Below, piece after piece: positions 1-57,674 of a stretch of DNA of 64,000 nucleotides. Numbering within the stretch: the stretch's first letter is position 1; the number at the start of each line of letters is the position of its first letter. Below the pieces are notes generated by a model, which was not told where the DNA came from, ran no database searches, and was given only the letters and a program-made list of their open reading frames with translations. Source of the DNA: a virus. The stretch spans positions 64,001 to 128,000 of the IMG/VR virus record IMGVR_UViG_3300031519_006853, one strand, 5' to 3'. The position numbers were made by a program, and so were the translations under genes.

Positions 1-23
1 TAAATAATAAAACAAAATAAAAA

Positions 24-698: not shown

Positions 699-699
699 G

Positions 700-1248: not shown

Positions 1249-1254
1249 TAAGAA

Positions 1255-1860: not shown

Positions 1861-3188
1861 GGGATTTTAATCAATGCCACGTAGGGCCTCATATACAATT
1901 TTTTGGAAAGGCTTTTATGAAAAGATGGAACTTTATCCCTTATACTGATGGGAATAAGCCAGTAGTTTTTTTTGGTATAAACAGACAACATGAATTAATT
2001 AATAATCACAAAGGTCCTAAAATAATTATTACTTCTGGTCCAGAGGATTTACCTGATTGGAATATACTTAAGAATAGAAAAAATCTTTTTCTTTTAAGTA
2101 GTGTAGATAAATTAAATAAGTCTATACCTTCAGATGTTATATTTAAGAGAGAAATGATTGAGATGAAGGATTTTTCGATGTTTAAGCCTAATGTCCTAGG
2201 TAATAAAATTTATGCTTATACAGGAACTCATTCTTGGTCTGTTAATCATTATCTTAAAAATGAATTACAAAAATATCTTCCGTATGAATTAATTTATAAA
2301 ACACATAATAGTGTTAATGATTATTATGATTTAAAATATCTCAAAGAAAATTATTATGACAAATCTTTTATGTGTATTAATTTACATGCTGGATTTGGCA
2401 TGACAACAGTAAGAGAATTGGCTTTAATGGGAAGAAAGGTTGCAATGAATCCTATTAATTATACACACTCCTTTGGTAAAGCTTGTTTACCCTTTGAATT
2501 AAATCATCCTACTAACGGCTTGGTTAATATTATAAAAAAAGAAGCCAAAAAGATTGGTACAATTCAACCTAGTATTAATTTACATACCCAAAATAATGAT
2601 AAATGGTTGTATTTAGATTATTATGTAAACAATAATACAATAAAACCATATAAAAATAAAAATAAAAATACCGTGAAACTTAAAAATTTAGGAAAATATA
2701 ATATTATAGCAGATGATGTTATTATTGAAGATGGCGTAAAGATTGGAAATTTTAATACTATAGCAAGTGGGACAATAATTAAAAAAGGAGCAGTGATTGG
2801 TAATTATTGCGAAATAGGTAAAAATAATGTTATTGGGGAAAATTCTATTTTACAAGGTAGAATTAGAACTGCAAGTGGTTGTATTTTTGAAAAAAATGTA
2901 ACTACTAAATATGGTACTATTTTAACCTCAGATGTATTGTTAAAAGAAGGGTGTTTTTTAGGACCTCATACCATTACGCTAGGATCTACTCATGAAAGAA
3001 TAACCAAGCATGGTACAATTATTGGTAAAAATACTTATATAGGTGCCGGATCCAAAATAGCAGCCGATACTAAAATAGGTGATGATATTGTGATAGGTGC
3101 TTTAGGTTTTGTAAATAAAGATTTAACTACTCCGGGTATATATGCAGGATTACCTGTCAAATTTATTAAGAAAAATAAAAAGAAATAA
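1857..3188 (+). CDS. fusion: unknown N-terminal domain plus C-terminal hexapeptide-repeat acyltransferase
   Basis: C-terminal [IV]GxNxxI repeats ending in GIYAGLPVKFIK. Confidence 0.7.
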   Translation: MRDFNQCHVGPHIQFFGKAFMKRWNFIPYTDGNKPVVFFGINRQHELINNHKGPKIIITSGPEDLPDWNILKNRKNLFLLSSVDKLNKSIPSDVIFKREMIEMKDFSMFKPNVLGNKIYAYTGTHSWSVNHYLKNELQKYLPYELIYKTHNSVNDYYDLKYLKENYYDKSFMCINLHAGFGMTTVRELALMGRKVAMNPINYTHSFGKACLPFELNHPTNGLVNIIKKEAKKIGTIQPSINLHTQNNDKWLYLDYYVNNNTIKPYKNKNKNTVKLKNLGKYNIIADDVIIEDGVKIGNFNTIASGTIIKKGAVIGNYCEIGKNNVIGENSILQGRIRTASGCIFEKNVTTKYGTILTSDVLLKEGCFLGPHTITLGSTHERITKHGTIIGKNTYIGAGSKIAADTKIGDDIVIGALGFVNKDLTTPGIYAGLPVKFIKKNKKK

Positions 3189-3715
3189 TGGAAATACTTC
3201 CAATGAGAACTCCGGCTAATACTAAAGGCCTAAAAGAATTAATATCTTCACTACCATCAAATTTGGTAATGTCTGAAATAGGGTGTTATGCAGGTCTTAG
3301 TACTAAAATTTTTATGGAATCAGGTAAAGTAAAAACTCTTTATGCTATTGATATTTGGGAAGATGTCTTAAATTTATTTAAAAGCAAATGGAAAGATCAT
3401 AATTTTAAAGCAGTAGAAGCTGAGTTTGATAAAAACCTAAAAGGCTTTAATGTAGTAAAATTAAAAATGAATGCTAAAGAAGCACAAGATCATTTACCAC
3501 AATTAGATTTTGCTTATATTGATGGAAATCATCATTATGAATATGTTAAGGAAGATATACAAATTTGTTTAAAAAAAATAAAGAATGATGGAATAATAAG
3601 TGGTCATGATTACTGTGAAGAATCACCAGGCGTCATAAAAGCTGTTAATGAAATGTTTGGTAAACCTGATAAAGTATTTTCAGATGCAAGCTGGATCGTA
3701 AAGTTAAAAAAATGA
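3188..3715 (+). CDS. class I SAM-dependent methyltransferase (Methyltransf_24-like)
   Basis: EIGCYAGLST, YIDGNHHYEYVKED, ISGHDY. Confidence 0.85.
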   Translation: MEILPMRTPANTKGLKELISSLPSNLVMSEIGCYAGLSTKIFMESGKVKTLYAIDIWEDVLNLFKSKWKDHNFKAVEAEFDKNLKGFNVVKLKMNAKEAQDHLPQLDFAYIDGNHHYEYVKEDIQICLKKIKNDGIISGHDYCEESPGVIKAVNEMFGKPDKVFSDASWIVKLKK

Positions 3716-4410
3716 AAAGTTTAAAAGATAAGTGGATGACCACATTTTATGGCATGGATTGGTATAAGATAAATTCTATAACTGATCTTGCTAATATACA
3801 AGGACCTGCTCTAATTGAATATGTTATTGATGTTAATAAATATAGAGAAATAGAAAAAGTACAAGAATTAGGCTTTACTTTAGTTGAAACAGATATAGAA
3901 TTTGAAACTTTAATTGATCATGACAGAGGATCTCTCCCTAATATTAGAATAGCAAATGAAAATGATTTAGGAGCTATTTTAGAAATAACAAAGGAGTGTT
4001 ATTCTTCTCATAATAAATTTTATAATAGATTTAGAAACAAATCTTTTTTTACAGAAAAGCAAGCAGAAGATTATTATAAAAATAGTGTTATTAATAATTA
4101 TGAAGGAGAAAATATAATTAAAGTTGTAGTAGAAGATAACGAAGGTATTTGCGCCTATTATATTATAAAGAAACTGGAAAGTCTAGAACTATATGGAAAA
4201 TATAAAGGCATTATTGCAGGAGTATCTGCTAGGGCAAGAGGTAAAAATCTACATGTAGAAATGCAAAACAAAATAACTGAATTAATTAAAGAACCTTATA
4301 TAACAGTAAATAGAACACAATTAGGAAACTATAGAGTAATAGGAAATCATTTAAAAGATAGAAGACAATTATCTAAAATTGAACATTATTTTTATAAAAA
4401 AATAAAATAA
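3712..4410 (+). CDS. GNAT acetyltransferase, WecD/RffC-like
   Basis: IRIANENDLGAI, GVSARARGKNL acetyl-CoA loop, TQLGN; adjacent to an aminotransferase. Confidence 0.65.
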   Translation: MKSLKDKWMTTFYGMDWYKINSITDLANIQGPALIEYVIDVNKYREIEKVQELGFTLVETDIEFETLIDHDRGSLPNIRIANENDLGAILEITKECYSSHNKFYNRFRNKSFFTEKQAEDYYKNSVINNYEGENIIKVVVEDNEGICAYYIIKKLESLELYGKYKGIIAGVSARARGKNLHVEMQNKITELIKEPYITVNRTQLGNYRVIGNHLKDRRQLSKIEHYFYKKIK

Positions 4411-4412
4411 GT

Positions 4413-5045
4413 ATGCCAATTAAAAAACATAGCCCTTATAAAATAGTAAGTATGTTTGAAGAAGAGCTCTCTGAATATACCGGCGCTAAATATGTAGTAG
4501 CAGTTGACAGCTGCACTAATGCTTTATTTTTAGTTTGTAAGTATTTACAAGTTAAAGAAGTTACTATCCCATCACAAACATATCTTTCAGTTCCTATGAG
4601 CATAATACATGCCGGTGGAAATATAATTTTTGATAAATCAGCAAAATCTAATCATTGGAAAGGCATATATCAATTAAAACCCTATCCTATATATGATGCA
4701 GCAAAAAGATTTACATCTAACATGTATATTAAAGAATCCTTTATGTGTTTATCTTTTCATATTAAAAAATTATTAAATATTGGTAAAGGTGGTGCTATTT
4801 TAACTGATAACAAAGAAGCCTATGAATGGTTTAAAAAAGCAAGGTATGAAGGTAGGAGTGAAAAGTTTTATAAAGAAGACAGTATTGAAACTTTAGGTTG
4901 GAATATGTATATGACTCCACAACAAGCAGCTCACGGTTTATGTTTAATGCAAAATCATCCAATCAACGCAGAAGATCAGGGAGAGCATAATGGTTATCGT
5001 GACTTAACTGAATTTCCAGTTTTTAAAAAATATAAAACTATATAA
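4413..5045 (+). CDS. short DegT/DnrJ/EryC1/StrS sugar aminotransferase
   Basis: VAVDSCTNAL, YDAA, SFHIKK (Schiff-base Lys), GKGGAILTD, LGWNMYM; only 210 aa. Confidence 0.85.
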   Translation: MPIKKHSPYKIVSMFEEELSEYTGAKYVVAVDSCTNALFLVCKYLQVKEVTIPSQTYLSVPMSIIHAGGNIIFDKSAKSNHWKGIYQLKPYPIYDAAKRFTSNMYIKESFMCLSFHIKKLLNIGKGGAILTDNKEAYEWFKKARYEGRSEKFYKEDSIETLGWNMYMTPQQAAHGLCLMQNHPINAEDQGEHNGYRDLTEFPVFKKYKTI

Positions 5046-5710
5046 TGGAAGAATCAATTAAAGAATTAATACAAAAAGAAATACAGGCAATAGGAAATAT
5101 ACCTGTTGATTTTAGTTTTGAATTAGCTGTTAATAAAATTAAAATGAAAGTTCATAGTTTAAGTAAGTGTGGAAAGGTTGTAATTTCAGGTATGGGTAAG
5201 GCTGGTCAAATAGGTTTAAACATTTCAACAACCTTATGTTCTACTGGAACTCCTTCTGTTTATTTACATCCTAGTGAAGCACAGCATGGAGACTTAGGAA
5301 TACTTCAACAGAATGATGTTCTTATTCTTTTATCAAACTCTGGTAAGACTAGAGAAATATTAGAATTAATTGAATTATCTAAAAACATGTATCCTCATAT
5401 TAGTATTATCTGTATAACTGGTAAAAAAGATAGCCCATTAGCAAAGGCATCAGATATAGTTTTACACACTGGTGATGCTGATGAAATTTGCCCGCTAGGA
5501 TTAACACCAACAATATCAACAACACTAATGACAGTAATCGGTGATATCTTAGTTGTAGAATTAATGAAGAAGATTAACTTTTCAAAAAAGGAATATTCTA
5601 AAAGACATCATAGTGGTTATTTAGGACAGAAAAGCAAAGAGGACACTAAGCATCCACCAGGAAGTTTGTTAAATGAACTTCCACCAAACGATTATCAAAT
5701 GGGAAATTAA
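5045..5710 (+). CDS. kdsD: arabinose-5-phosphate isomerase, SIS domain only (no CBS pair)
   Basis: GMGKAG, HPSEAQHGDLG, SNSGKTRE, EICPLGLTPTISTT. Confidence 0.9.
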   Translation: MEESIKELIQKEIQAIGNIPVDFSFELAVNKIKMKVHSLSKCGKVVISGMGKAGQIGLNISTTLCSTGTPSVYLHPSEAQHGDLGILQQNDVLILLSNSGKTREILELIELSKNMYPHISIICITGKKDSPLAKASDIVLHTGDADEICPLGLTPTISTTLMTVIGDILVVELMKKINFSKKEYSKRHHSGYLGQKSKEDTKHPPGSLLNELPPNDYQMGN

Positions 5711-6417
5711 TGAAAACAATAATTATTATACCTGCAAGATGGGAATCAACTAGATTACCAGGGAAGCCTTTAGCTATGATTGGTGATAAGCCAATGATAC
5801 AACATACTTGGGAAAGGGCATGCGAATCTAATGCTGATGAGGTTATTATTGCATGTGATAGTAAAATTGTATATGATGCTGCTACTAAATTTGGGGCTAA
5901 AGTTATATGGACTCCTGGTGCAGATACAGGAACTGAAAGAGTAATAGGTGTTCAAAAAATTGAGGCTGCTGATTTTATTATTAATGTTCAAGGCGATGAA
6001 CCCTTTATTAATCCTAATGATATTAATGAAGTAATTAAAATTGTTCATAATCATCCAGATAAAGTAGCAACAATGTCAACAGATTTAACAAGTAATGAAG
6101 GAAAGGATCCTAATGTTGTTAAAGCAATACGAAATGCAATAGGTTTAGTTGGAATGTTTACTAGGAGTTCTATTTACATGAAAACTAATTTTGCATATAA
6201 GCATATTGGTTTATACGGCTATAGTGCTAAAGTACTAAACAAAATATCTGCATTAAAACCTTCAGAAAGTTCTATTAAAGACTCACTAGAGCAATTAACT
6301 TGGATGGACAATAATATACCTATTGTTGCAGGTTGGACATCTTACAAGTCATTAGGCGTTGACACAAAAGAAGATTTAAAAAATGCTAATGACTTTTATA
6401 AAACTATTCATAATTAA
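5710..6417 (+). CDS. kdsB: CMP-Kdo synthetase
   Basis: IPARWESTRLPGKPL, TGTER, INVQGDEP, HIGLYGY, SLEQL, GVDT. Confidence 0.92.
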   Translation: MKTIIIIPARWESTRLPGKPLAMIGDKPMIQHTWERACESNADEVIIACDSKIVYDAATKFGAKVIWTPGADTGTERVIGVQKIEAADFIINVQGDEPFINPNDINEVIKIVHNHPDKVATMSTDLTSNEGKDPNVVKAIRNAIGLVGMFTRSSIYMKTNFAYKHIGLYGYSAKVLNKISALKPSESSIKDSLEQLTWMDNNIPIVAGWTSYKSLGVDTKEDLKNANDFYKTIHN

Positions 6418-6426
6418 TCCATATAA
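6401..6426 (+). promoter_or_regulatory. class II motif AAAC-N17-TATAA
   Basis: AAAC-N15-CATATAA. Confidence 0.55.
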
Positions 6427-6450
6427 TAATAAATAATAAGTATACTTTAA

Positions 6451-7458
6451 ATGAAGAGGAAAATAGTATTGTATGGCGGATATTCCGACAATGAGTATAA
6501 TGCAGAAACAGTATATGATACTAAAGGATGCGGTGGTAGTGAAATAGCGTTAATCAAGCTAGCTGAAAATTTAGCCAAAGACAAACGCAATGAAGTTGTA
6601 GTCTCTTCTAGTATGATTATAGAAGGAACATTTAAAGGCATACTTCACCTAAATAAGAAGAGCCTAAATAACTATCTAAATAACAACGAAGTTGACATTG
6701 CTATAGTGTCTAGGTATATCCATTACGTCCTTGATCACAAGTTGGCCAAGAAAAACTATTTATGGCTACATGACTATCAACCTCATTCATGGTGGAATGG
6801 AAAACAATTTAATCCAGAAGTCCTAGGTAATTTGTTTCCTTTATTTGATAAGGTAGTGTGCGTTAGTGATTGGCAAGCAGGTGTTCAAATTAGTAGATAT
6901 GGGGAACATGTCAAAGAGTTTCTAACCACCATACACAACGGAGTCGATCAGTCTAATTTTCCTAAAGAAATAGACACTTCTTTAAAGCAATCTGGTAAAA
7001 TAGTTTTTAATTGCAGAACTAGCGGGCTTCAGAATGCCGTTGACTGGTTTAATGAATACAAAAAACACAATCAAAACGCAGAGCTCCATGTCTTTGCACA
7101 AGAAGCTGGTTTACAACACGTGGCCGGTGACTTGACAGGAGTTTTTGATAGAGGTAGAGTTTCTAATATAGAAATGATAAATGAACTCGTAACCGCTGAG
7201 ATATGGATTAATTCAAGCACAGTGCCTGAAACGTTTTGTATATCTTCAGTAGAAGCTCAGCTTTGCAAGTGCATACCTGTTATAATGCCACAAGCCGGCA
7301 TGTTAGAAATAACACCACATTACAATGATGTAAAAAGTCATAACATTGACTTTACAACTAGACAAATAGAAGAAAACTATAAATCAGCATTAGATTTCAC
7401 ATGGGAACGAAATGCTAAAGAGTTTAATGTGTTAATAAATAAAAAATATAATGTTTAA
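6451..7458 (+). CDS. GT4-like (GT-B) glycosyltransferase
   Basis: GGSEIA, VCVSDWQ, IHNGVD, ETFCISSVEA (ExF..E) motif. Confidence 0.8.
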   Translation: MKRKIVLYGGYSDNEYNAETVYDTKGCGGSEIALIKLAENLAKDKRNEVVVSSSMIIEGTFKGILHLNKKSLNNYLNNNEVDIAIVSRYIHYVLDHKLAKKNYLWLHDYQPHSWWNGKQFNPEVLGNLFPLFDKVVCVSDWQAGVQISRYGEHVKEFLTTIHNGVDQSNFPKEIDTSLKQSGKIVFNCRTSGLQNAVDWFNEYKKHNQNAELHVFAQEAGLQHVAGDLTGVFDRGRVSNIEMINELVTAEIWINSSTVPETFCISSVEAQLCKCIPVIMPQAGMLEITPHYNDVKSHNIDFTTRQIEENYKSALDFTWERNAKEFNVLINKKYNV

Positions 7459-7690
7459 AATACTTAAAAAAATTAGAGCTTGGTTTTTGCCAAAGCATGA
7501 AGGTGAATTTTCATATTCACCAGAAGGTTTTGTTATGGCTAGGCGATGGGCAAAAAATCAACCTCATCCTAAATTACCAGATCACCCAACCCAATCATTA
7601 TGGAACTATGTAGAGAGTAATTGGATTGATTCAGAATATAAATTAAATGAAATCAATAAAGTTAAAACAAATAAGAATAAAAGTATATAA
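7451..7690 (+). CDS. hypothetical protein
   Basis: ORF tightly coupled to neighbours. Confidence 0.6.
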   Translation: MFKILKKIRAWFLPKHEGEFSYSPEGFVMARRWAKNQPHPKLPDHPTQSLWNYVESNWIDSEYKLNEINKVKTNKNKSI

Positions 7691-7695
7691 TTAAT

Positions 7696-7959
7696 ATGGA
7701 AGGTCAAAAAATGAATGTAGATATTGATTCAACACAAGAAATAGTTTGTGATGAGTGTGGTCATAACGTGTTTAGGCCAGGATTCTTCTTAAGAAAGATA
7801 AGTAGGTTTGTATCACCAGATGGCCAAGATAGGTTATTACCTTTAGATACAATGGAATGTAGTAAATGTGGAAATATTAATAAAGAATTTCAGGCAGCAA
7901 CGCCTAAAGTAAAAACAAAAACAAAAACTAATAATTTAAAAGATGGCAAAGACAATTAA
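7696..7959 (+). CDS. zinc-ribbon protein
   Basis: CDECG ... CSKCG. Confidence 0.7.
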   Translation: MEGQKMNVDIDSTQEIVCDECGHNVFRPGFFLRKISRFVSPDGQDRLLPLDTMECSKCGNINKEFQAATPKVKTKTKTNNLKDGKDN

Positions 7960-8647
7960 AATGGATAGAAACAATAAAGAGTCATACGATAATCAAATCG
8001 ATGCTTCTGTGGGTTCTAAAGAAGAACAACAACAATTAAAGGATGAATTATATACTCCTAAGGGAAATACTCATATAAAACCTGATCCTCGAAAGATGAG
8101 TGAAATTATTACTGATAAGAAAGCTGCATTAAAACTTAATGAAGATTTACTTAGAAATCTTCAGAAAAATGAGTATGATATTCCAATGGCAAAAGCTAAG
8201 CTTTATAAGCAACTTATGAAGTTTTTAGAAAAAGATGCTGAATGGGGTCATACTACTGCGACAGGTTTAGTAATGTTATATTCTAATCTTAAAGAAAATT
8301 CTAAAGCAGTTCAGTCTAAAGACTGGGACGGTATTGTTAAATTAAGAGGTACAAGTATTACTATCCTATGGACAATGGTAACATCAATGAAAGGTAAAGG
8401 ATTCTTTGAAGCTAGAAATTTTATTGAGTTAATGGCTGAATTTGGACAAGATCTTTCTACTGTAGTTCAAAAGGTTCATCAAGATAACCAAGCACTTAGA
8501 GATAATCACGTAAAGTTATCAGAATTAGATAAAGAAGTTAATCATCCTGATGTTATTCTTGATGTATCAATTGATGAATATAATAAAGCTGAAGATGAAC
8601 TTAATCAATTAATGGATGAAGTTGATCCAGTAGTAGAAACAGTTTAA
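7943..8647 (+). CDS. hypothetical helical protein
   Basis: 234-aa ORF in operon. Confidence 0.65.
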   Translation: MAKTIKMDRNNKESYDNQIDASVGSKEEQQQLKDELYTPKGNTHIKPDPRKMSEIITDKKAALKLNEDLLRNLQKNEYDIPMAKAKLYKQLMKFLEKDAEWGHTTATGLVMLYSNLKENSKAVQSKDWDGIVKLRGTSITILWTMVTSMKGKGFFEARNFIELMAEFGQDLSTVVQKVHQDNQALRDNHVKLSELDKEVNHPDVILDVSIDEYNKAEDELNQLMDEVDPVVETV

Positions 8648-8939: not shown

Positions 8940-9998
8940 ATGGAACATATTAAAGACTACAAATTATTTAAAGAGTCTCTAAATACCGAAGTACTCAATG
9001 AGGCTTTTAGTTCAGGTATCTTAAGAGATTTATCTAGCCAAAGTAGAGGCAAATGGGGTGGCAACTTAGCCAAAGACATGCAAAAATATGCAAGTCTTGC
9101 TCTAGACAAAATTTCGGATTCGGATTTTACTACAACTTCACCAGAAGCTTATTGGAAAGGTGGCGATGCAAAGAACCCTAACAAAATAGGATTCTTTGTT
9201 GATGATGATCCAGGATTTATTAAATGGGCAAAGGCAAACAAAAAATACTTACCAGGAGATTTAACATTAGGTAACATTTCAAAATATGGAATAGTATTAT
9301 CTGTTGTAAGAGGTGGTGCTGGGATGTGGCATGGATTTGCTACTGATAGAGGTGGTTCTTATAGTAGACATAGAAAAGGTACTGAAGAAAGATATGGACT
9401 TCTTGCAAAAGAATATGATACTAACGGAGTTTACAGAGGCTATGAAGGCAAAAATGTTGTTGCTAAAGTAACAAGGAAAAATCTTATTGATATTGCAACT
9501 CGTGTTTATGTATTAGACTTAGATAGTTTAAGAGATAAGTATGATGTAAGCGGTTTAACTAGTGATCGTGCCAATGCTAAATCAGGTGCAACTGCGTTAA
9601 AGGATGCTAAAACTATTAAAAAAGAAAATCAAGCAAGGTATGATGCTATCTTAACCGATAGAGCTGCAATGACTGATGTTGATAAATCAGTTAAAGATTC
9701 TATTGAATTATTAAATCAACATATATCCGATGCATTAAAAGATGGTACTATGGATAAATTTGGAAACCTTACTATTGGTGAAGATCCAAGAGGAAGAAGT
9801 ATTAAGATAACTGATGGCGCTAATTACATTAAAAATCTTTTAGATGATTACCAAAGATATAAGGATTATGAAAGACAAGATAAAGAAGCAAAAGCTGATG
9901 GTAGAGAAGATAACTGGCATGCAAGAGAAATAAAGAATTATGCTAAAAGAATTCAAGATAGAGCTAGAGCAGTAAAGGCTAAAAATTATGCTTGGTAA
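8940..9998 (+). CDS. putative virion-internal protein with CTS-like leader
   Basis: MEHIKDYKLFKESLNTEVLNE|A leader. Confidence 0.6.
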   Translation: MEHIKDYKLFKESLNTEVLNEAFSSGILRDLSSQSRGKWGGNLAKDMQKYASLALDKISDSDFTTTSPEAYWKGGDAKNPNKIGFFVDDDPGFIKWAKANKKYLPGDLTLGNISKYGIVLSVVRGGAGMWHGFATDRGGSYSRHRKGTEERYGLLAKEYDTNGVYRGYEGKNVVAKVTRKNLIDIATRVYVLDLDSLRDKYDVSGLTSDRANAKSGATALKDAKTIKKENQARYDAILTDRAAMTDVDKSVKDSIELLNQHISDALKDGTMDKFGNLTIGEDPRGRSIKITDGANYIKNLLDDYQRYKDYERQDKEAKADGREDNWHAREIKNYAKRIQDRARAVKAKNYAW

Positions 9999-10000
9999 TT

Positions 10001-11803
10001 ATGAAACATATAAAAGAATATTTATCATTTAGAGACTCTTTAAATGAAGGACCAGGAAAGGGTTACTATATTGAAGTAGCTGTCCGAGATGCTAGAAAGG
10101 CTTTAGCAATTTTAGATGACATGTATCGTAAGAAGTTTGATATTAATGGAAGTAATGTTTATTACTTTAAGGATGAAGACATGGCATATGATGCTAAGAT
10201 GGATTTAGCAGCCAGAGATATAGAAATTGTTGATACTAATATTGAAGAATCATTAGATGAAAAGGCAGGTCCATGCTGGGATGGTTATAAAATAGGATCT
10301 CCTAAAACAAAGATATCTTCTCAAAGTGGTAAAAGAGTTAATAATTGTGTTCCTATAGATGAAGAAGTTAATGAAAAATTAGCTCGAGGATTAAAACCCT
10401 TATTGAAATTAGGTTCAACTATTACTAAGAAGACTGGTGAAGATGCATTACTAGATTTATCTGATAAGTTTGATAGTATAGATGATGAATATGCTGGAAC
10501 TATAGCAAGCCATTTAGATATGGCTATTGAATTAATGCAAGATGGTTATTCAGGAGATGCTACTAAAAAATTAAAGCAATTTAATAAAGCATGTAAAGAT
10601 GTTCTTAGTGGAAAGGAAGTTGGTTCAGCTTTTGAAAACGTTAATGAAGCAACATATAACTCAAAGAATCATATAGGAGATACTTCTGATGGGCAAGGTT
10701 CTAATGCTGAGATTTATAAAAAAGGAAAAGGATATTATGTAGTTGTTAGTGGAGAAGTTGATTATGATTTTACTGCAAAAAATGACAAAGAGTTATTACA
10801 AAAGTTAAAAGATAATGAATTTGATTCTACTGATATATTAGAAGTTAATGAAGGCAACTTTGATGATATTTTAGATTTAGTTAAATCTTTACATTTTGAA
10901 ATAGATCCTAAGGTTGCTAAGGAAAAGAAAATTGAACTTGGTAAAAGACAAGGCGAATATTCATTAAGAAAACAAATTGAAGGTGGAGAATATTCATTAA
11001 GAAGATTTAGAAAGGAAATTAAATACGACAAAACTGGTAAAGATCTTGGTATATTTAGACCTGGTAGTTATATGGCTGCTACTTCTACAGCAGGAGACGG
11101 TCCACATAGGAAGGCCGTTGCAAAGATTAAATGGAATCAAAAGAAATATGACCAATGGTTAGAAGATGTTGCATCAAATGATGGTTGGAAGAATGCTTTC
11201 GATATGGCACAAAATGCTAAACAAGAACCAGGGTTAATTTCTTGGGTTAAGAAAACGTTTAGAGTTCCTGATCCAATGCAAAGAATACAGTGGGATATTG
11301 AATCATTTGCAGAATCAGTTGATGAATCTGCAATGTCTGAACTTGATATATTAGCAAAGGAGGCAAAAGACTTTAAGGCATTTACAAAAGAAGTATTTAA
11401 AGAATTTAAAAATTTACCAAAAAAGGCAGATACTTTAAAATGGTTAGAAGAATTATATAACGATGCAATAAATGAAGCAGAAAAAGCTGAAGGTGATCGT
11501 AGTAAATTATCAGCTGACATTGAAAAAGCATTAAAGGATAAGGCTACCGAGAGTGGCGTACCTATTGGATTATTAAGATTAGTAATGAGAAGAGGTTTGG
11601 ATGCTTGGAACAGTAGTCATCGTGCAGGTGTACCACAAGTAGCTTGGGGTTATGCTCGTGTAAATGCATTCTTAGAAAAAGGTAAAGGAACTTGGGGTAA
11701 GGCTGATGCTGATATTGCAAAAGAAGTTAGAGATGAAGGCAAGGCTGGTAAACTACCAATTAAAAATCCTTCTGAATTTACCAAAAAAGAAAGAGAAGCA
11801 TAA
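10001..11803 (+). CDS. putative head-processed polyprotein (7 modules)
   Basis: MKHIKEYLSFRDSLNE leader; internal SLDE, EVNE, NVNE, EVNE, SVDE, AINE linkers; PCWDGY..NCVP and RGLDAW..H..WGYARVNAF modules resemble small T4-like phage domains. Confidence 0.65.
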   Translation: MKHIKEYLSFRDSLNEGPGKGYYIEVAVRDARKALAILDDMYRKKFDINGSNVYYFKDEDMAYDAKMDLAARDIEIVDTNIEESLDEKAGPCWDGYKIGSPKTKISSQSGKRVNNCVPIDEEVNEKLARGLKPLLKLGSTITKKTGEDALLDLSDKFDSIDDEYAGTIASHLDMAIELMQDGYSGDATKKLKQFNKACKDVLSGKEVGSAFENVNEATYNSKNHIGDTSDGQGSNAEIYKKGKGYYVVVSGEVDYDFTAKNDKELLQKLKDNEFDSTDILEVNEGNFDDILDLVKSLHFEIDPKVAKEKKIELGKRQGEYSLRKQIEGGEYSLRRFRKEIKYDKTGKDLGIFRPGSYMAATSTAGDGPHRKAVAKIKWNQKKYDQWLEDVASNDGWKNAFDMAQNAKQEPGLISWVKKTFRVPDPMQRIQWDIESFAESVDESAMSELDILAKEAKDFKAFTKEVFKEFKNLPKKADTLKWLEELYNDAINEAEKAEGDRSKLSADIEKALKDKATESGVPIGLLRLVMRRGLDAWNSSHRAGVPQVAWGYARVNAFLEKGKGTWGKADADIAKEVRDEGKAGKLPIKNPSEFTKKEREA

Positions 11804-12348
11804 TGAAATTTATAAAAGGCTTTACTGATTTTAAAAATGTATCTGAAGAACTTAAATATCATGTAGATAATGGTATAGGTTTAGATGATAGTGTTTTTCG
11901 TTTAGGATCTGATGCTCATAGTAAATTATTTGAAGAAGCTAAACAATATTGGGATAAAGGAAATCTAGTATTAAAAGGTAAAAGCGGATTTATGGCTAAG
12001 AACCTTGATGTAGGTAAAGAAGCTATTTATAAAGATCGTAAATCAGGCAGAACTAAAAAAGTTAAACTTGATTCACCAGAAAGAGGCGGCAATAGAAAAT
12101 TTATTGTTTATCGTGATGGCGGAAGAACTGATAAAGAAACAGGAAAGATTGTTGCAAAGAAGATTGAATGGGGAGATCCTAACTTATCTGTAAAGAATGA
12201 TGATCCTGGTGCAGCTGCTAGTTTTTGGGCAAGACATCAATGTGATCAAAAGAAAAAGATGGATCCAAATAAAGCAGGCTTTTGGGCATGCTATGGACCA
12301 AGTCTATTTGGAAAGCAATTAGGATTAAAGAGTACTAATCCTTGGTAA
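11803..12348 (+). CDS. putative virion-internal protein with CTS-like leader
   Basis: MKFIKGFTDFKNVSE leader; GDPNL..SFWARHQC..AGFWAC resembles a widespread phage domain. Confidence 0.6.
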   Translation: MKFIKGFTDFKNVSEELKYHVDNGIGLDDSVFRLGSDAHSKLFEEAKQYWDKGNLVLKGKSGFMAKNLDVGKEAIYKDRKSGRTKKVKLDSPERGGNRKFIVYRDGGRTDKETGKIVAKKIEWGDPNLSVKNDDPGAAASFWARHQCDQKKKMDPNKAGFWACYGPSLFGKQLGLKSTNPW

Positions 12349-12375
12349 GTAATATATAAAAAAATAATATACACA

Positions 12376-13470
12376 ATGAAACATTTACAAAGAATAGATG
12401 AAGCTGTTGGTACAATCTTAGAAAGAAGAGCTTCGGCCGAATCTTTACTTAAAGGTGTAGCTAAAGGCGATTCAACTGAAGTAGAGGGAATTAAAATGTC
12501 TAAAGATATGGCTGATGCTTATTTAGACTGGTTAAGGTTATCAACTTATGGTAAGAAATTTGGAGCATTACCATTTTATAAATTATTTTCAGCTTCGTTT
12601 AATTGGGGTATAGAAAGATATATTGGTAAAGATTTAAAAGCTGAACTTAAAGAACTTAAAGCCAAGGCTAAATCAATGAAAGAGGCTAACGAGATTAATG
12701 AAAAAACTTCTTTAGGAAAACTTTCAAAGTTAATAGATAAAGCAGTAAAGAAAGCTGATGTTCCATTAAGCTATGCTAGAGAATATATTAGTTCTTTAGA
12801 AGATATGGCAAAAAGAAATTCTAAAAAGTTCTTTAAAGATTATAATAATTTTAGTGAAGATGATTTTATCGAGGATGTTGAATATAACATGGCTAATGAA
12901 AATAAAGTAAATGAAGCTAAAGATTTTGAACCTCATATGATGTATGATCCTGAAACTGGTGATGAATATGAAGCTGAAAAACCAGAAGATCATGAGAGAA
13001 TGGCTAAACTAGGTTATGTTCATGAAAAACCAGAAAGCGTTGATGAGGCTAGGTTTGTAAAAGATTTTAACACGCGTGTTTTGGATGCAAAAACAAAAGA
13101 GGAAGTTTTAAAACTTTATCCAAATGCAGAATTCTTTATTGGTAAATCAGACCACTTCTTTGGAGAATTAGATGCTAACTTATTCTTTAAAGCATATTAT
13201 ACAAAAGGGCAAAAAGAATTTAGAATAAAATCAGTTTATTCTGAGAAAAATAAAAACTATGTTCATTTATTTAATGAATCATTAAATGAAGCCGCTCCTC
13301 GAATAAAAACGAGTAAAGAAGAAGCAAGCTTATTAGATTTAAGAGATCAAGTTAGATATGCACAAAAGGGTGGATCTGCTAGCAGATATGCAAAAGACTT
13401 TGAAAAAGCAAAGAAAAAGGCTTTAAGTGCATTAGGAGATATGATAACATATATAAAAATAGGAGTATAA
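12376..13470 (+). CDS. putative head-processed polyprotein
   Basis: MKHLQRIDE|A; internal EINE, KVNE|A, SVDE|A, SLNE|A. Confidence 0.6.
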   Translation: MKHLQRIDEAVGTILERRASAESLLKGVAKGDSTEVEGIKMSKDMADAYLDWLRLSTYGKKFGALPFYKLFSASFNWGIERYIGKDLKAELKELKAKAKSMKEANEINEKTSLGKLSKLIDKAVKKADVPLSYAREYISSLEDMAKRNSKKFFKDYNNFSEDDFIEDVEYNMANENKVNEAKDFEPHMMYDPETGDEYEAEKPEDHERMAKLGYVHEKPESVDEARFVKDFNTRVLDAKTKEEVLKLYPNAEFFIGKSDHFFGELDANLFFKAYYTKGQKEFRIKSVYSEKNKNYVHLFNESLNEAAPRIKTSKEEASLLDLRDQVRYAQKGGSASRYAKDFEKAKKKALSALGDMITYIKIGV

Positions 13471-13475: not shown

Positions 13476-14051
13476 ATGAAAAACTTTAGAACATACGGAG
13501 AATTTATTACCGAAGCTTATTCTGATGAAGATAGAAAGGCAATGGCAGAAAAAGGATTTGCCTTATCTGATGGGAGTTTTCCTATCGCTAATTTAGAAGA
13601 TCTTAAGAATGCAATCCAAGCTTACGGTAGAGCAAAGGATCAAGCAAAGGCTGCTAAGTTTATTGTAAAGAGAGCAAAAGCATTAGGTGCTGAAGATCTT
13701 GTTCCTGATACAGATGATTTTCAAAAGTCATTAGATGAAGTTGCTGTTGGGTCTGCTATACATGATGTATCTACTGAGCTTCCTGCTAAAACTATTGCAT
13801 TTCCTGTAGAGGATGATGAAGAAGCAAACGGATCTATTACTGAAGGAACTGATATTGGTTCATGGAATCAAGGCGGACTTAAAGGAAAGGAAAATGTTTT
13901 AATAACTACCTTTGTTGGTCCTAAAGATGTTGAAGATTTTGGCCTAGGTAGAAAATGCATGCAAATAAATGTAGGAATGAAATATGTTTCATTAAATCCT
14001 GCTGATATTGTAGAGTTAAAAGATATTCTTAAATCTTATAAAGTAAAGTAA
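13476..14051 (+). CDS. putative virion-internal protein with CTS-like leader
   Basis: MKNFRTYGEFITE|A resembles the T4 IPII/IPIII CTS MKTYQEFIAE; DGSFPIANLEDLKNAIQAYGRA module. Confidence 0.65.
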   Translation: MKNFRTYGEFITEAYSDEDRKAMAEKGFALSDGSFPIANLEDLKNAIQAYGRAKDQAKAAKFIVKRAKALGAEDLVPDTDDFQKSLDEVAVGSAIHDVSTELPAKTIAFPVEDDEEANGSITEGTDIGSWNQGGLKGKENVLITTFVGPKDVEDFGLGRKCMQINVGMKYVSLNPADIVELKDILKSYKVK

Positions 14052-14489: not shown

Positions 14490-16514
14490 ATGGGAGAAAT
14501 TTATCCAGAGGAAGAACAACAAGAAAAGAAGCCGAGGTTTAAAAAGCAGACATTAGTGTTAGATACTTATGGTACTAATCTAAGCAAGTCAGCTATAGAA
14601 GGTAAATTAGATCCAGTCATTGGACGAACCGATGAAATACTTAGAGTTATACAAATTCTAGGAAGGCGTAGAAAAAACAATCCAGTTTTGGTTGGTGAAC
14701 CAGGTGTAGGTAAAACTGCAATCGTAGAAGGTTTAGCATTAAAAATGGTAGAAGGAAATGTTCCTGTATCACTACAAGGCAAAATCATTTATACTTTAGA
14801 ATTATCAACAATCGTTGCAGGTACAAAATACCGTGGCCAGTTTGAGGAACGGATGAAAAGTATTGTTGATGAATTAATTCTTAATCCACATATCATTGTT
14901 TTTATTGATGAATTACATACTCTCGTTGGAGCCGGTGGTTCTACAGGATCATTGGATGCATCAAATATTATTAAGCCAGCTTTAGCAAGAGGGGAAATTA
15001 GATGTATAGGTGCAACTACTTTTGATGAATTTAGAGAAAACATTGAAGATGATGGCGCATTAGATAGAAGATTCCAAAAGGTTGTAGTAAATCCTCCAAC
15101 ATTAGAAGAAACAATTGAAATACTTTCAATGATTAGGCATAAGTATGAAGAACACCATAGTGTATCATATTCAGATGAAGTTATTAATTTAATTGTTAAG
15201 CTTGCTGATCGTTATATTATGGATAGGTTCTTTCCTGATAAAGCAGTAGATATATTAGATGAGGTAGGATCTTATAAGCATTTAATTAACATGAAAATTC
15301 CACAAGGGATAAAATCATTAGAAGAAAAATTAGTTCAAAAGGAAAATGCTAAAAGAAAGGCAGTGTCTCGCCAACTTTATGAAGTAGCTGCAAAGGAAAG
15401 AGATGCATGTTTAACCCTTAAAGAAAGAATTAAGCATGATCTTGCTGAATGGAAAGAACAAATGGCAGTTAATCAATTAGAAATAACTGAAGATGATGTA
15501 TTAAAGGTTGTATCTAAATCAACAGGTGTACCGATAGAAAAAATATCTGATAAAGAAAACAAAAATTTATTAGGTCTTAATAAACATCTATCATCTAGAG
15601 TTATAGGACAAGAAGAAGCTGTTAATAAAATAGCAGTAACTGTTCAAAGAAACCGAGTAGGTATTAGAAAAAGAAACCGAACAATGGGTAACTTTATTTT
15701 CTTAGGTCCTACTGGTGTTGGTAAAACTCAATTAGCAAAAGAATTAACAGAATATCTTTTTAATAGTGAAGATTCATTAATTAGAGTTGATATGTCTGAA
15801 TACATGGAACCGCATTCTATTTCTAAATTAATTGGAGCACCTCCTGGTTATGTAGGTTTTGAAGGTGGTGGTTTTTTAACAGAGCAGGTAAAGAGAAAAC
15901 CACATTCAGTTATATTATTTGACGAGATAGAAAAAGCTCATCCAGAGGTCTTTAATGTACTTCTACAAATGTTAGATGATGGGCAGTTAACTGATTCTTT
16001 AGGCAGGACTGTTGATTTTAGAAATTGTTTAGTAATTCTTACATCAAATACAGGATCTAGAAAATTACAAGACTTTGGCCAAGGGATAGGATTTGAAAGT
16101 TCTTCTAAGATGGTTAATCAAGTTGAAGAAGAAAAAACTATTTTAAGAAAGGCTCTTAAAAACAAATTCTCACCAGAATTTTTAAATAGAATTGATGAGG
16201 TTGTAGTATTTAATAGATTAACGGAAGATAATGTAATGGATATTTTAACTAAAGAATGTAAAGAACTTGCATTAAACTTAGAAGAAGTAGGAAATTATAT
16301 TTTTAAAATATCTAAAGGCGCTAAAACAATAATACTTAATCAAGGATATGATCCTAAGTATGGAGCAAGACCTTTACGTAGAACCGTTGAAAGATTAATT
16401 GAAAATAAGATATCTGAATTTATTCTTAAAGGAGATTTAAAAGAAGGTGGTACGATTAATGTTAAAAGTACAAAAGGCGAATTAATAATTGATATAACAA
16501 ACATAAAAGAATAA
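14490..16514 (+). CDS. clpC: ClpC/ClpA-type AAA+ unfoldase lacking the N-terminal Clp-repeat domain
   Basis: Walker A motifs GEPGVGKT and [11 protein letters not shown]-like middle domain, IGF loop (GIGFE), YGARPLRR. Confidence 0.9.
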
Positions 16515-17182
16515 TGAATTACGGAAAAGAATTTCAGAAGTATGCAATGAGTGATCATAATGTTAGCTCATCTAAGTTAAATTATTATGAGAAGCAAATT
16601 GAATCATCAATGACTCCTTATATTTTAGAGGAGAGAGAATTAAGAGCAACACAAATGGATATCTTTTCAAGGTTAATGATGGATAGATTACTTTGGGTTG
16701 CTGGGCCAGTTAATGATGGTATGTCAACAGTTGTTCAGGCTCAACTAATGTTCCTAGATAGTGTAGAGAAAAAAGATATCACAATGCATATTGATTCTCC
16801 AGGAGGTTCTGTTAAATCAGGACTCTCTATGGTAGATGTTATGGATTATATTAAATCAGATATAAGAACAGTCAATACAGGCATGGCTGCATCTATGGGA
16901 TCAGTTTTACTAGGTGCAGGAACACGGGGTAAAAGAAGTTCACTAAAACATTCAACAACAATGTTACATCAATCATCAGGAGGGTTTAGTGGAAATATAC
17001 AAGATGCTGAAATTGATATGAAAGAATGGAAAAAGATTAATAATACTCTTTTTAAATTACTCGGATCATATTGTGGTAAAAAACCAGAAAAAGTAGCAAA
17101 GGATGCAACTAGAGATTTTTGGTTAAATGCTGAGGAGGCTGTAAAGTACGGAATTATTGATGAGATAATAGGAGTTAAATAA
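16514..17182 (+). CDS. clpP: ATP-dependent Clp protease proteolytic subunit
   Basis: DSPGGSV, GMAASMGS, MLHQ, RDFW catalytic motifs; Bacteroidota-like N-terminal extension. Confidence 0.95.
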   Translation: MNYGKEFQKYAMSDHNVSSSKLNYYEKQIESSMTPYILEERELRATQMDIFSRLMMDRLLWVAGPVNDGMSTVVQAQLMFLDSVEKKDITMHIDSPGGSVKSGLSMVDVMDYIKSDIRTVNTGMAASMGSVLLGAGTRGKRSSLKHSTTMLHQSSGGFSGNIQDAEIDMKEWKKINNTLFKLLGSYCGKKPEKVAKDATRDFWLNAEEAVKYGIIDEIIGVK

Positions 17183-17234: not shown

Positions 17235-18515
17235 ATGAGCAAAACTATTAACATTGAGGAATGGGATAAGCTTTCAAAAAAGAAACGAAAAGAAGTCACT
17301 AAAATTATATTTACAGGAACTAAAAAAGTAAGTGATGTAAAGGATAGGCCAAGTATGGCTTTTGCTACTATGTGTAAAAACGAGGAGCATTGTATAGGTG
17401 TTACGTTAGCACATGCTGGTAAACATTGTGACTATGTAGTAGTAGCTGATAATGGTTCTACTGATGGTACATTTGATGCAGTAAGAAAATTCTTTGATGA
17501 ATCAGGGTTACCTGGCTCATGGCATGTTGATCCTTGGGATGGTTATGCAATTAATAAAACAAAGATGTTATCTTATGTAAAAGATAAAACTGAATACCTT
17601 TTACATTTAGATGCTGATGATCGTGTTTCTGAGGATTTTTATTTTACTCATTCAGATGCTGGGAGCGATTACTATATTATGACAATGCATCGTGGAAACT
17701 CTACATGGAAAGCTACAGTAGTTTATAAAAATGATCTTGTATGGAGATTTTTAGGAACTGCTCATACAATTGTTAAAGCTGATAAAGAAAATTTAATTCA
17801 AGGAGATCTTAGTGAAAGAGGATATTGTAATTGTGATGGGATTGGATCACGTGCATTTGACCCTAGGAAATATTGGTATGATGGTGAAAGGTTAACAAAA
17901 CAATTTTGGGATTGTTTAGCAGATGATCCTGAAGGTTTATTAACAAGATCTGCGTTTTATGCAGGCCAGAGTTATATGGATTACCGAGTAGACGGTTGCA
18001 CAGAAAAAGCTTTACAATGGTATAGGTTATTTTTAAAATTTAAAGATACTTGGATTGAAGAACAGTTTGAAGCTCAGATGAGATTAAGTAGAATCATAAT
18101 GAGATTAGAAGATCATGAAGACAGGTTCTATGAAATTAAAAATGAAATGGATAAAGCAATTGCTATATTTGGTGATAGGGCTGAGCCTTATTATTTCTTT
18201 GGAGAATATTGCTGCAAACAAAATAGACATGATTTAGCATACGAATATTTAAAGAAAGCAACAGAATGCAACTTAGACCATGCTGAAAGTAATTATAATT
18301 TATTTGTTAATAGAACAGTTTATGGTATTCATATTAATGATTGGCTTTCTGTAGCATGTTATTGGACAAACCGAGTAGAAGAAGGTAAAAGTTATATAAA
18401 TGAAATTTTAGAAAATGCTGATCATTGTAAAACATTTAAAAACTCACTCCCTCATTATAAAAGAAATTTAGAACATTTTAATAATTTAGAAAAACGGTTA
18501 AATAATGAAAACTAG
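17235..18515 (+). CDS. GT2 glycosyltransferase with C-terminal TPR-like repeats
   Basis: MCKNEE, DNGSTDGT, LHLDADD; RSAFYAGQSY, RAEPYY helical repeats. Confidence 0.8.
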   Translation: MSKTINIEEWDKLSKKKRKEVTKIIFTGTKKVSDVKDRPSMAFATMCKNEEHCIGVTLAHAGKHCDYVVVADNGSTDGTFDAVRKFFDESGLPGSWHVDPWDGYAINKTKMLSYVKDKTEYLLHLDADDRVSEDFYFTHSDAGSDYYIMTMHRGNSTWKATVVYKNDLVWRFLGTAHTIVKADKENLIQGDLSERGYCNCDGIGSRAFDPRKYWYDGERLTKQFWDCLADDPEGLLTRSAFYAGQSYMDYRVDGCTEKALQWYRLFLKFKDTWIEEQFEAQMRLSRIIMRLEDHEDRFYEIKNEMDKAIAIFGDRAEPYYFFGEYCCKQNRHDLAYEYLKKATECNLDHAESNYNLFVNRTVYGIHINDWLSVACYWTNRVEEGKSYINEILENADHCKTFKNSLPHYKRNLEHFNNLEKRLNNEN

Positions 18516-19314
18516 ATCTCAATTAACTTCAGGCTTTTCTTTAAGTTTACATGATACGTATATAAAGGCAAAGCCTTATCCACATATTTCTATCGATAAT
18601 TTTATACCTATTGAGGATATAAGATTATGTGTTAATGAAATGAAAAACTTTCCAAACTGGGGATATGATAAAGGTAATGAGCATTTCCAAAACAAAAAAT
18701 ACTTTTATCCTTGGCGTGAAATTGAAACTATCTTAGGTCCTACTAGCGATATCGCTGATACTGTTGAAACACTTTCAACTAAGGCCCCTGTATGCTGGAA
18801 GTGGCTTAGCTATTTTAATTCAGAAGATTTTATTAAAATTTTAGAAAACTTAACTGGAATAAAAGATCTTATGCCAGATCTAGGTTTTTCAGGTGGTGGT
18901 ATGCATATGATACAATCAGGTGGAAAATTATCAATTCATAGTGATTTTAACAAACATCCTTATGGTTTAGGTTGGAGAAGAATTAATTTATTAGTTTATT
19001 TAAATGAAGATTGGCAAAAAGAATGGGGTGGAACTTTACAGATTTGGAATAAAGATATGTCTGAAATGGTTTCTGAATTTCAACCGTATGCAGGTAAAGC
19101 TATTATTTTTAATACAACTGATGATGCACTACATGGTCACCCTGACCCTCTAAATTCACCAGAATACATAGCACGGCATTCATTTGCATTATATTATTTT
19201 ACTAAAGATAGACCCGAGCATGAAAAATCAGATTTTATTGGTGCCCAATGGTATGACAAAGGAAATCCGTTAAGTGTACAAGAACAAGAAAATAGAGAAC
19301 AACAAAATGCATAA
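18505..19314 (+). CDS. 2OG-Fe(II) oxygenase
   Basis: IHSDFN (HxD), RINLLVYLN, WGGTL, LHGHP, RHSFALYY. Confidence 0.88.
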   Translation: MKTRSQLTSGFSLSLHDTYIKAKPYPHISIDNFIPIEDIRLCVNEMKNFPNWGYDKGNEHFQNKKYFYPWREIETILGPTSDIADTVETLSTKAPVCWKWLSYFNSEDFIKILENLTGIKDLMPDLGFSGGGMHMIQSGGKLSIHSDFNKHPYGLGWRRINLLVYLNEDWQKEWGGTLQIWNKDMSEMVSEFQPYAGKAIIFNTTDDALHGHPDPLNSPEYIARHSFALYYFTKDRPEHEKSDFIGAQWYDKGNPLSVQEQENREQQNA

Positions 19315-20551: not shown

Positions 20552-20552
20552 T

Positions 20553-20936: not shown

Positions 20937-21012
20937 TGATTAAAAAATTAATATTCTTAATAAGACTTAAGCTTGCAAAAAGAAAAAGAAAATCAGTATG
21001 GGATCTGTAATT

Positions 21013-21597: not shown

Positions 21598-21598
21598 C

Positions 21599-21826: not shown

Positions 21827-21827
21827 G

Positions 21828-22808: not shown

Positions 22809-22809
22809 T

Positions 22810-24009: not shown

Positions 24010-24021
24010 ATAAAAAGAAAT

Positions 24022-24639: not shown

Positions 24640-24648
24640 GAAATTACT

Positions 24649-24678: not shown

Positions 24679-24694
24679 AATTAAATACCAATAT

Positions 24695-57644: not shown

Positions 57645-57674
57645 AATTAGTTTTATATTTGTTTATATATTTGT

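Follow-up and report, generated by a model that had tools for sequence, protein, structure and literature searches.

Why should a single phage gene encode a string of small, mutually unrelated modules that are separated time and again by the same short motif? This question is raised by a 600-amino-acid (aa) open reading frame (ORF) at positions 10001–11803 (plus strand) of the window analysed here, i.e. of a 64,000-nucleotide (nt) stretch corresponding to bases 64001–128000 of the IMG/VR virus record IMGVR_UViG_3300031519_006853, a linear contig of 181,663 bp with ~30% G+C and a CheckV completeness of ~65%. Coordinates are those of the window, and those marked "genome" refer to the whole contig. 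The ORF consists of a leader followed by seven modules (M1–M7). Relatives swap, drop and reorder such modules precisely where a joint fits the motif of the head protease encoded by the phage itself, so packing of the chains into the capsid and their cutting there are probable. Our favoured explanation, which we hold to be reasonably probable, regards this ORF and the other leader-bearing ORFs of the genome as cargo polyproteins that a distant T4-type myovirus targets to its capsid.

Seven modules behind one leader

The ORF starts at the ATG at 10001 and stops at 11801–11803; the ORF listing puts its start at an upstream TTG (9992), but the ATG instead yields the family leader MKHIK. The 16-aa leader MKHIKEYLSFRDSLNE (10001–10048), which resembles a capsid targeting sequence (CTS), ends in the first of seven predicted cut sites of the form [LIV][NDT]E[AGSK] (aa 14–17, 85–88, 123–126, 214–217, 282–285, 440–443 and 490–493). 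The Glu codons of these sites end at 10048, 10261, 10375, 10648, 10852, 11326 and 11476, and set off modules of 71, 38, 91, 68, 158, 50 and 108 aa. All of these sites, sizes and codon ends had been given exactly in an initial annotation of the window, and its description of the modules as unrelated held as well, since pairwise BLASTP among M1–M7 returned no significant mutual similarity (best E 0.015). The joints of this ORF (DSLNE, ESLDE, EEVNE, ENVNE, LEVNE, ESVDE and DAINE; in short, [DE]-x-[LVI]-[ND]-E) are looser than the consensus of the family described below. A short GKGYY[IV] motif is common to M1 (10049–10090) and M4 (10700–10740); this match, over 9 aa at a BLASTP E of 0.04, may be due to chance or reflect a small strand present in both.

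With respect to the individual modules, which range from 4 to 18 kDa and as cut fragments would measure 8.2, 4.1, 9.9, 7.6, 18.3, 5.9 and 11.8 kDa from M1 to M7, M1 (10049–10261) has an isoelectric point of 4.4 and an alpha/beta model by AlphaFold2 (AF2) with a predicted local distance difference test score (pLDDT) of ~80. It is the only confident part of the full-length model (pLDDT 45.5, predicted template modelling score 0.26); the confident region agrees with the sites at residues 16 and 87, and confidence drops at the SLDE|K joint. M2 (10262–10375) contains Cys residues (PCWDGYK...NCVP) and also occurs in gp18 of the Methylophilales phage Melnitz. M5 (10853–11326), the most widespread module, is modelled as helical with a disordered centre (pLDDT 71); no PDB fold matched this model, and hence no function was assigned to it. 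M6 (11327–11476) is present as a tandem duplicate in one relative (L060). M7 (11477–11800), which begins with AEKAEGDRSKLS, matches DUF5824 over residues 511–571 (36.4 bits versus a gathering cut-off of 25 bits), the only Pfam domain detected in this protein; a Pfam scan of ten ORFs revealed no peptidase and no signature domain of polyvalent proteins.

Relatives provide the most telling evidence. Scanning viral contigs with the 600-aa protein identified 67 loci, in which the matches end at module limits, for example at residues 282–440 (M5) or 123–218 (M3). When all ORFs were cut at the core motif and the pieces clustered, M5 (29 distinct sequences) proved to have 15 kinds of neighbour on its upstream side and 10 on its downstream side; partner switching was also seen for M3, M6 and M7, and M6 is doubled within one ORF. 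In a wider set of 726 database proteins of 330–1050 aa plus 376 shorter ones, all annotated "hypothetical", 167 distinct proteins with at least one of M1–M7 displayed 34 different orders, M5-M3, M3-M5, M6-M5-M7 and M2-M5-M4 among them, and chains with 15 sites, in 1163 aa and in more than 1315 aa, occur among relatives. The tripeptide [LIV][NDT]E precedes the module start in 53 of 56 cases for M3, 24 of 26 for M1 and 33 of 38 for M4.

Some modules also exist singly. M5 stands alone behind a leader in, for example, P0201, P0222, P0234, P0236 and P0240, and M7 in, for example, P0212 and P0216; in P0216, which reads MKFVKEYNQFNE|AEKAEGDRSKLS, the residues following the leader are identical to those that follow the internal joint DAINE| in our ORF. 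M3 is preceded by a leader in P0005 and L004, by EEVNE| in our ORF, and by ESVVTE| or ESVVNE| elsewhere, and many ORFs terminate exactly where the joint after M5 would fall. The predicted mature ends of a module are thus the same alone and within a chain, as would be expected if every joint is cut. Judged by these orders, neighbours and single forms, the pieces are independent, shuffled modules, which is the strongest result of this analysis.

The boundary motif itself is far from random. The four-residue form occurs 7 times in 600 aa, i.e. 1.17 per 100 aa versus 0.155 genome-wide, and the three-residue core 8 times versus a shuffle mean of 1.6, with none of 2000 composition shuffles reaching 8. 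The density of the core per 100 aa amounts to 1.01 in the leader-bearing ORFs versus 0.385 in the other 190 ORFs, such that the enrichment expected in the initial annotation is borne out. We also located the ends of local homology between differently built ORFs of related contigs, a test that does not presuppose the motif: 29% of C-terminal ends fell within 3 aa of a motif Glu, versus 6% of random positions. The tests reported here bear out that this motif marks a genuine signal, extended as well as conserved.

The joints, their DNA and the head protease

To describe the joint, 209 distinct contexts were selected on two grounds only, presence of the core tripeptide and proximity to a homology breakpoint. 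The resulting logo has Glu at P6 in 42% (background 8%), Ser at P5 in 38% (background 6%), Val at P4 in 20%, and V, L or I at P3 in 57%, 23% and 18%, respectively; P1' is Ala (35%), Ser (20%), Lys (17%) or Gly (11%), together 83%, and P2' is Lys in 26%. The consensus is therefore E-S-V-V-[N/T]-E | [A/S/K/G]-K. The DNA encoding ESV[VI][NT]E is nearly invariant in relatives, GAATCAGTAGTTA[AC][TC]GAA: among 58 joints that connect various pairs of modules, GTA encodes the first Val 56 times, GTT the second Val 51 times and TCA the Ser 49 times. GTAGTT encodes 93% of the VV pairs at joints versus 25% of those elsewhere in the same ORFs, and GAATCA is used for 30% of ES dipeptides away from joints. 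The joint DNA is fixed beyond codon-pair preference.

In our ORF, the same 12-mer GAAGTTAATGAA, encoding E-V-N-E, forms a direct repeat at the M2|M3 (10364–10375) and M4|M5 (10841–10852) joints (both plus strand). The 477-nt M3-M4 cassette (10376–10852; 91 + 68 aa) is precisely missing from P0007–P0010 and from a syntenic contig, L167, which is 88–92% identical in nucleotide sequence on both sides and has a single copy of GAAGTTAATGAA. The single 12-mer and the exact absence of the cassette are what recombination between joint-coding repeats leaves behind when it inserts or deletes a segment. In the sequences compared, it is precisely at the joints that relatives gain, lose, duplicate and permute modules; and because the joint DNA is nearly fixed and 12-bp repeats flank M3-M4, the joint-coding DNA is probably also an in-frame recombination site. 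The hexapeptide joint may then serve two purposes, as a cut site for the prohead protease and as a 12–18-nt in-frame recombination site, enabling plug-and-play reshuffling of co-loaded and co-delivered small proteins in marine T4-type phages. We regard this dual role as a serious possibility rather than as a probability.

Where would the cut come from? T4 gp21 cleaves after L/I-X-E, and ten residues of the CTS suffice for head targeting (PMC9026906); the T4 CTS reads MKTYQEFIAE, and its fusion to foreign proteins leads to their packaging (PMC8442874). About 14 ORFs of the genome bear an N-terminal leader of 9–21 aa that closely resembles MKTYQEFIAE, ends in hydrophobic-x-Glu (e.g. MKNFRTYGEFITE|A, MKHIKTFDSINE|A, MKHIKEYLSFRDSLNE|G) and is followed by 1–7 small modules. 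The gp21-like protease supposed in the initial annotation is also encoded, at genome 18182–19903 outside the window (L001:1438–3156), where a 573-aa ORF begins with a Peptidase_S77 domain (PF03420, 55 bits versus a 27-bit cut-off); the protease part takes up residues 1 to ~166. Its alignment to T4 gp21 (PDB 5JBL) keeps the GELDHP and ISSRAAG motifs, the His and Ser of which we take to be the catalytic residues of gp21.

T4 has separate gp21 and gp22 genes, whereas the S77 domain here is fused to a ~400-aa coiled-coil, scaffold-like region with Y-[ST]-E-Y-[IL]-[AG]-E repeats. This fusion contains the motif as well, with ARVNE|S adjoining the protease domain and with EESINE|S, LESINE|S and LLNE|S besides. 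The fusion is shared by a related, more distant subclade (L155), which keeps RVNE|S after the protease domain and has a different, highly acidic scaffold; it yields no ESVVTE-type control. The capsid protein (genome 20011–21939), which belongs to the gp23 family (PF07068, 7.8e-31), has LINE|A, GITE|K and NLNE|S among its first 46 residues; all three sites are conserved in the 79 relatives examined, and NLNE|S is its predicted maturation site. Since phmmer of the capsid protein against PDB sequences gave no match, this site is not anchored to T4 gp23 by alignment. A parallel to the gp23 delta domain of T4 is presumed.

A further observation concerns targeting. Many relatives (L007, L013, L026, L044, L048–L050, L053 and L062) contain a composite targeting module in which GMGxVxLP...GSGDxP is followed by an acidic stretch, a stretch of Lys and, internally, an MKHIKxxESFxNE leader. 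The opening part is similar to the N-terminal arm that the mature capsid protein has (SMGNATLPGNPG...ATGSGDRP), and the composite module may therefore mimic a capsid-interior docking segment.

According to the cargo polyprotein model, the leader would dock the chain into the scaffolding core, and the prohead protease would cut behind each joint Glu as well as behind that of the leader, freeing separate small proteins with sizes like those of T4 IPI*–IPIII*. These would remain in the head and exit with the DNA, and the near-fixed joint DNA, acting as an in-frame recombination site, would render the cargo set combinatorially exchangeable. The chains can, however, also be perceived as beads-on-a-string multidomain proteins, packaged or not, that lose at most their leader, with the joints being flexible linkers or recombination scars and each chain one polyvalent protein. 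Recombination alone could indeed keep the joint sequence, given its fixation at the DNA level and the cassette indel between direct repeats; polyvalent proteins delivered intact are known, for instance the N4 virion RNA polymerase (PMC5512222); and the AF2 model, being of low confidence, argues neither for nor against exposure of the joints. We nevertheless consider this view rather unlikely, as it does not foresee that the joint would match the leader end and the capsid and scaffold sites of the same phage, that the P1 Glu would be kept even in variant joints, or that tandem double sites 4–6 aa apart would recur. Nor does it foresee that ORFs would often end at a would-be joint (M5 ending ...WDIEAFA) or that a module's first residue would be unchanged when it follows a removable leader.

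Alternatively, the chains could be scaffold-like components in the manner of T4 gp22, gp67 and gp68, an expendable filler of the prohead core that is chopped up and largely expelled at maturation with no function in the next host. T4 core proteins are cut into multiple fragments that exit the head (PMC9026906), the protease-scaffold fusion has the highest core density of all (1.57 per 100 aa), and most modules are without recognisable function. Nonetheless, at 4–18 kDa the modules approximate the retained T4 internal proteins and not expelled peptides, and M1 and parts of M5 are predicted to fold. They are also hypervariable and shuffled among close relatives, unlike a size-determining scaffold, and recognisable domains do exist, namely DUF5824, a SnoaL-like domain and a nucleotidyltransferase in HTVC008M gp130 and, by a motif read by eye, in Melnitz gp18. 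We therefore deem filler an improbable role.

Other leader-bearing ORFs and their surroundings

The initial annotation had claimed the same architecture for six other ORFs of the window, and to varying degrees this is so. It is convincing for three of them, all on the plus strand. The first (12376–13470; 364 aa) has a leader and five modules, with Glu codons ending at 12402, 12702, 12915, 13047 and 13290, and its 5 sites are reached by 5 of 2000 shuffles. The second (28487–29389; 300 aa) combines a triple leader site, three ~90-aa modules and the tandem site VNE|SIDLNE|A (6 sites; 0 of 2000 shuffles), and the third (29389–31074; 561 aa) also has 6 sites, including two tandem ones (1 of 2000), and one module in common with L007. 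The likeness is moderate for 13476–14051 (plus strand), in which the leader MKNFRTYGEFITE|A, the one nearest to the T4 CTS, precedes three pieces (3 sites, ending at 13514, 13739 and 13844; 26 of 2000), and for 56258–57157 (minus strand; 299 aa), which has a leader and three modules (3 sites; 51 of 2000) and whose first module sits upstream of M5 or M3 in three relatives (L048, L049 and L065). The sixth, at 31079–31831 (plus strand), has two sites, one in the leader and one internal, a number not significant on its own; it consists of a leader, a 113-aa module and a SnoaL/CaMKII-association-domain-like domain (PF08332, 3.5e-17). This last module (31454–31828), of the NTF2 fold, is among the few cargo modules with a recognisable fold.

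Further members lie nearby. The gene run to which our ORF belongs (8940–12348) opens with a 21-aa leader (...VLNE|A) joined to a single 331-aa domain (8940–9998, plus strand) and closes with an ORF (11803–12348, plus strand) that has a leader-like N-terminus, MKFIKGFTDF..., no canonical site, and a C-terminal Cys module also present at the C-terminus of Melnitz gp18. A single-module form, MKYIKPLNE|G plus 99 aa, occupies 31833–32159 (plus strand), a 38-aa leader-like N-terminus (...ILNE|G) precedes a 151-aa helical module at 32690–33259 (plus strand), and the leader MSKIPNFDKFEVNE| is followed by two pieces at 57159–57644 (minus strand). In total, the window holds ~35 predicted pieces in 12 leader-bearing ORFs. 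The "dozens of small effectors" of the initial annotation are an extrapolation. A family is assigned to two modules only, M7 (DUF5824) and the SnoaL/CaMKII-association-domain-like one.

Are these ORFs expressed together with virion genes? The T4 late promoter TATAAATA is neither enriched nor positioned in this genome. The box ATATATAA occurs in 38 plus-strand and 8 minus-strand copies, a strong strand bias, and 24 of the plus-strand copies lie 9–33 nt upstream of a start codon, the top count among all 56 permutations of its letters (median 4.5). The genes that it precedes include those of the portal, the protease-scaffold fusion, the sheath, the tube and a fibre-like protein, further large ORFs of that genome part without a functional family match, and a number of leader-bearing ORFs. 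In the window these are 12376 (box at 12352–12359, 16 nt upstream), 13476 (box at 13449–13456) and, on the minus strand, 57644 (box at 57663–57670, before 57159–57644); elsewhere they lie at genome 22041, 168440, 174235 and 177346. The AATATATAAA box is probably this phage's late promoter in place of TATAAATA, and as ATATATAA is common to both groups, co-expression of the box-bearing cargo ORFs with virion genes is suggested, an indirect hint that their products may reside in the mature head.

These data also bear on a third view, in which the ORFs are not virion-associated at all, the shared N-termini and joints represent a mobile translation-initiation and recombination cassette distributed among paralogous accessory genes, and the likeness to protease sites is coincidental. 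Short conserved cassettes do shuffle accessory genes of T4-type phages (PMC2839356, PMC4122927), and the tripeptide is short in an AT-rich genome with abundant Asn, Glu and Val. Yet six leader-bearing ORFs share the promoter-like box with the portal, protease, sheath and tube genes, and one such ORF (genome 22041) lies directly beside the capsid gene. In addition, the leader is similar to the CTS that experiments defined in T4 and ends according to the hydrophobic-x-Glu rule, with Val often replacing Leu or Ile, and the logo is strongly biased at positions that were left unconstrained; taken together, these features make the third view very improbable. Two other candidates were rejected: a 2A-like ribosome-skipping peptide at the joints, by consensus mismatch and by its eukaryotic mechanism, and internal translation starts, by the lack of start codons at the first residues of the modules.

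As for the phage itself, an uncultured marine giant of T4-like type, it is a distant T4-type myovirus with a portal gene (genome 16489–18135), a tail sheath, a tail tube and a gp23-family capsid protein. The nearest named relatives of the capsid protein belong to an uncultured 462-kb phage, Prevotella Lak phages and Tenacibaculum jumbo phages. A close homologue of the 600-aa ORF was binned with a Flavobacteriales metagenome-assembled genome (n=1), and for this reason a Bacteroidota host is likely. Megablast of the 5.5-kb target region against cultured phages gave no match, and tblastn of the 600-aa protein against phages matched its M6-M7 end only, in the Pelagibacter phage HTVC008M, Melnitz and a few others, with DUF5824-homologous stretches in HTVC008M gp130 (L002) and Melnitz gp18 (L003).

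Several side observations deserve mention. The small Cys modules (PCWDGYK...NCVP and the C-terminal WGD...ARHxC...GFWAC...NPW; window 10262–10375 and 11803–12348) recur, together with DUF5824, in large leader-bearing proteins of cultured Kyanoviridae, the two just named; the preceding N-terminal domain is annotated as a cytidyltransferase in HTVC008M gp130, and the same nucleotidyltransferase-type motif was read by eye in Melnitz gp18, which is annotated as hypothetical. Directly 3' of the cargo cluster lie a ClpA/B-type double AAA+ unfoldase gene (14490–16514; AAA_2 2e-65, ClpB_D2-small) and, adjoining it, a ClpP protease gene (16514–17182; PF00574, 2.7e-58). Many glycosyltransferase and sugar-nucleotide genes surround the cargo clusters (1–8000 and 17235–25675; e.g. 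a family 2 glycosyltransferase at 17235–18515), a set that is consistent with DNA or surface glycosylation.

Weighing the model against known systems

The interpretation given in the initial annotation is borne out in part, and several findings weigh against the cargo polyprotein model. Packaging, cleavage at the joints and injection or ejection are all steps that we infer from sequence. The protease is divergent (24.8 bits to gp21 in a search of the PDB), and P3 of the joint is mostly Val versus the Leu or Ile preferred by T4 gp21. Enrichment of the bare tripeptide is just ~2.6-fold and is not seen in the leader-bearing ORFs 8940, 11803 and 31079, and among relatives 41 of 99 M5 starts and 28 of 55 M6 starts are without the canonical tripeptide, even though most of the commonest exceptions listed retain a Glu just ahead of the module. 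Unlike T4 internal proteins, the modules are not uniformly basic. The full-length AF2 model of our ORF is too poor to establish that its joints are exposed, and the gene run 8940, 10001 and 11803 is preceded by another box, GTTGAATAAATAAAG, and not by ATATATAA.

If the joints are cut, a single capsid-address tag would bring into the head an entire set of small proteins that is rapidly exchangeable. Our best guess for the role of these pieces in the host, by analogy with T4 internal proteins, is anti-defence or host take-over. The leader together with the E-S-V-V-N/T-E joints would provide a sequence rule to predict which proteins the virion delivers, applicable to thousands of uncultured T4-type phages of marine and fresh waters, among whose "hypothetical" ORFs there are likely anti-defence and take-over factors. 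Cassette exchange mediated by in-frame repeats would constitute a concrete mechanism for the hyperplasticity of such loci, and the joint could offer a design supplied by nature for packaging several cargoes at once in delivery vectors based on T4. Should the dual role of the joint hold true, the locus would be a combinatorial generator of injected-protein repertoires, of which we found no description in the literature searched.

The initial annotation knew of no named system of this kind, and we likewise did not find the architecture described in the literature on capsid targeting sequences, prohead proteases, polyproteins, and cyanophage and marine virion proteomes. Nevertheless, T4 CTS proteins, multi-site cleavage of head proteins and polyvalent proteins each cover a part of it. 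The closest parallel is with T4 IPI, IPII, IPIII and Alt, which share the short N-terminal leader ending in hydrophobic-x-Glu and the presence of a gp21-family (S77) protease in the same genome. Like the T4 internal proteins, the modules are small, non-essential-looking and hypervariable, and the single-module forms (leader plus M5, leader plus M7, and ORF 31833) look exactly like T4-style internal proteins. Pfam and PHROG searches gave no match to the IPI, IPII, IPIII or Alt families. What sets the present ORFs apart is that T4 internal proteins are cut once, beside the CTS (PMC8442874), whereas here one leader precedes up to seven modules with repeated sites (15 in relatives); the predicted layout of our ORF is seven sites and seven modules, and that of the six others 2–6 sites, rather than one cut and one product. 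If the joints are indeed cut, the T4 paradigm of one tag, one protein and one cut would be extended to a polyprotein logic.

Several S77-type cuts after Glu in one polypeptide, with redundant close sites, are shared (here as a prediction) with T4 gp22, gp67 and gp68 and with the head and ejection proteins of phiKZ, 201phi2-1 and SPN3US. In those T4 core and phiKZ-type proteins, however, the additional cuts break up scaffolds or long propeptides, with a single mature product remaining (PMC10052503, PMC9026906). The phiKZ-like motif is S/A-X-E, whereas P3 here is mostly V, L or I. The proteins of both groups are conserved core components as opposed to permutable strings of unrelated modules, and neither Pfam nor PHROG gave a link to phiKZ head proteins. 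With polyvalent proteins (Iyer, Burroughs, Anand, de Souza and Aravind, 2017) the chains have in common many unrelated domains per polypeptide and mosaicism across relatives, and for polyvalent proteins, too, delivery with the DNA and proteolytic release into units have been proposed (PMC5512222). Polyvalent proteins, however, are large and have an embedded zincin-like metallopeptidase (MPTase) or another peptidase and a characteristic domain set, while the chains described here have no embedded peptidase, consist of modules of 38–158 aa, and would be released by a trans-acting prohead protease at a fixed hexapeptide joint.

At the level of DNA, the joints are reminiscent of the promoter early stem-loop (PeSL) cassettes and the glycine-rich motifs of gp38 in T4-type phages, where short conserved DNA flanks variable units as a recombination site through which modules are inserted, deleted or replaced (PMC2839356, PMC4122927, PMC3157838). 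PeSLs are intergenic promoter-terminator cassettes that move whole genes, whereas the conserved unit of 12–18 nt lies in frame here and encodes a putative protease site as well. Finally, the polyproteins that RNA viruses of eukaryotes make, in which one translation product is split at repeated short sites into separate proteins, offer an operational analogy only: in the chains considered here the enzyme would be a capsid-maturation protease, the cutting would take place inside the prohead, and the products, instead of serving replication or structure, would be its cargo.

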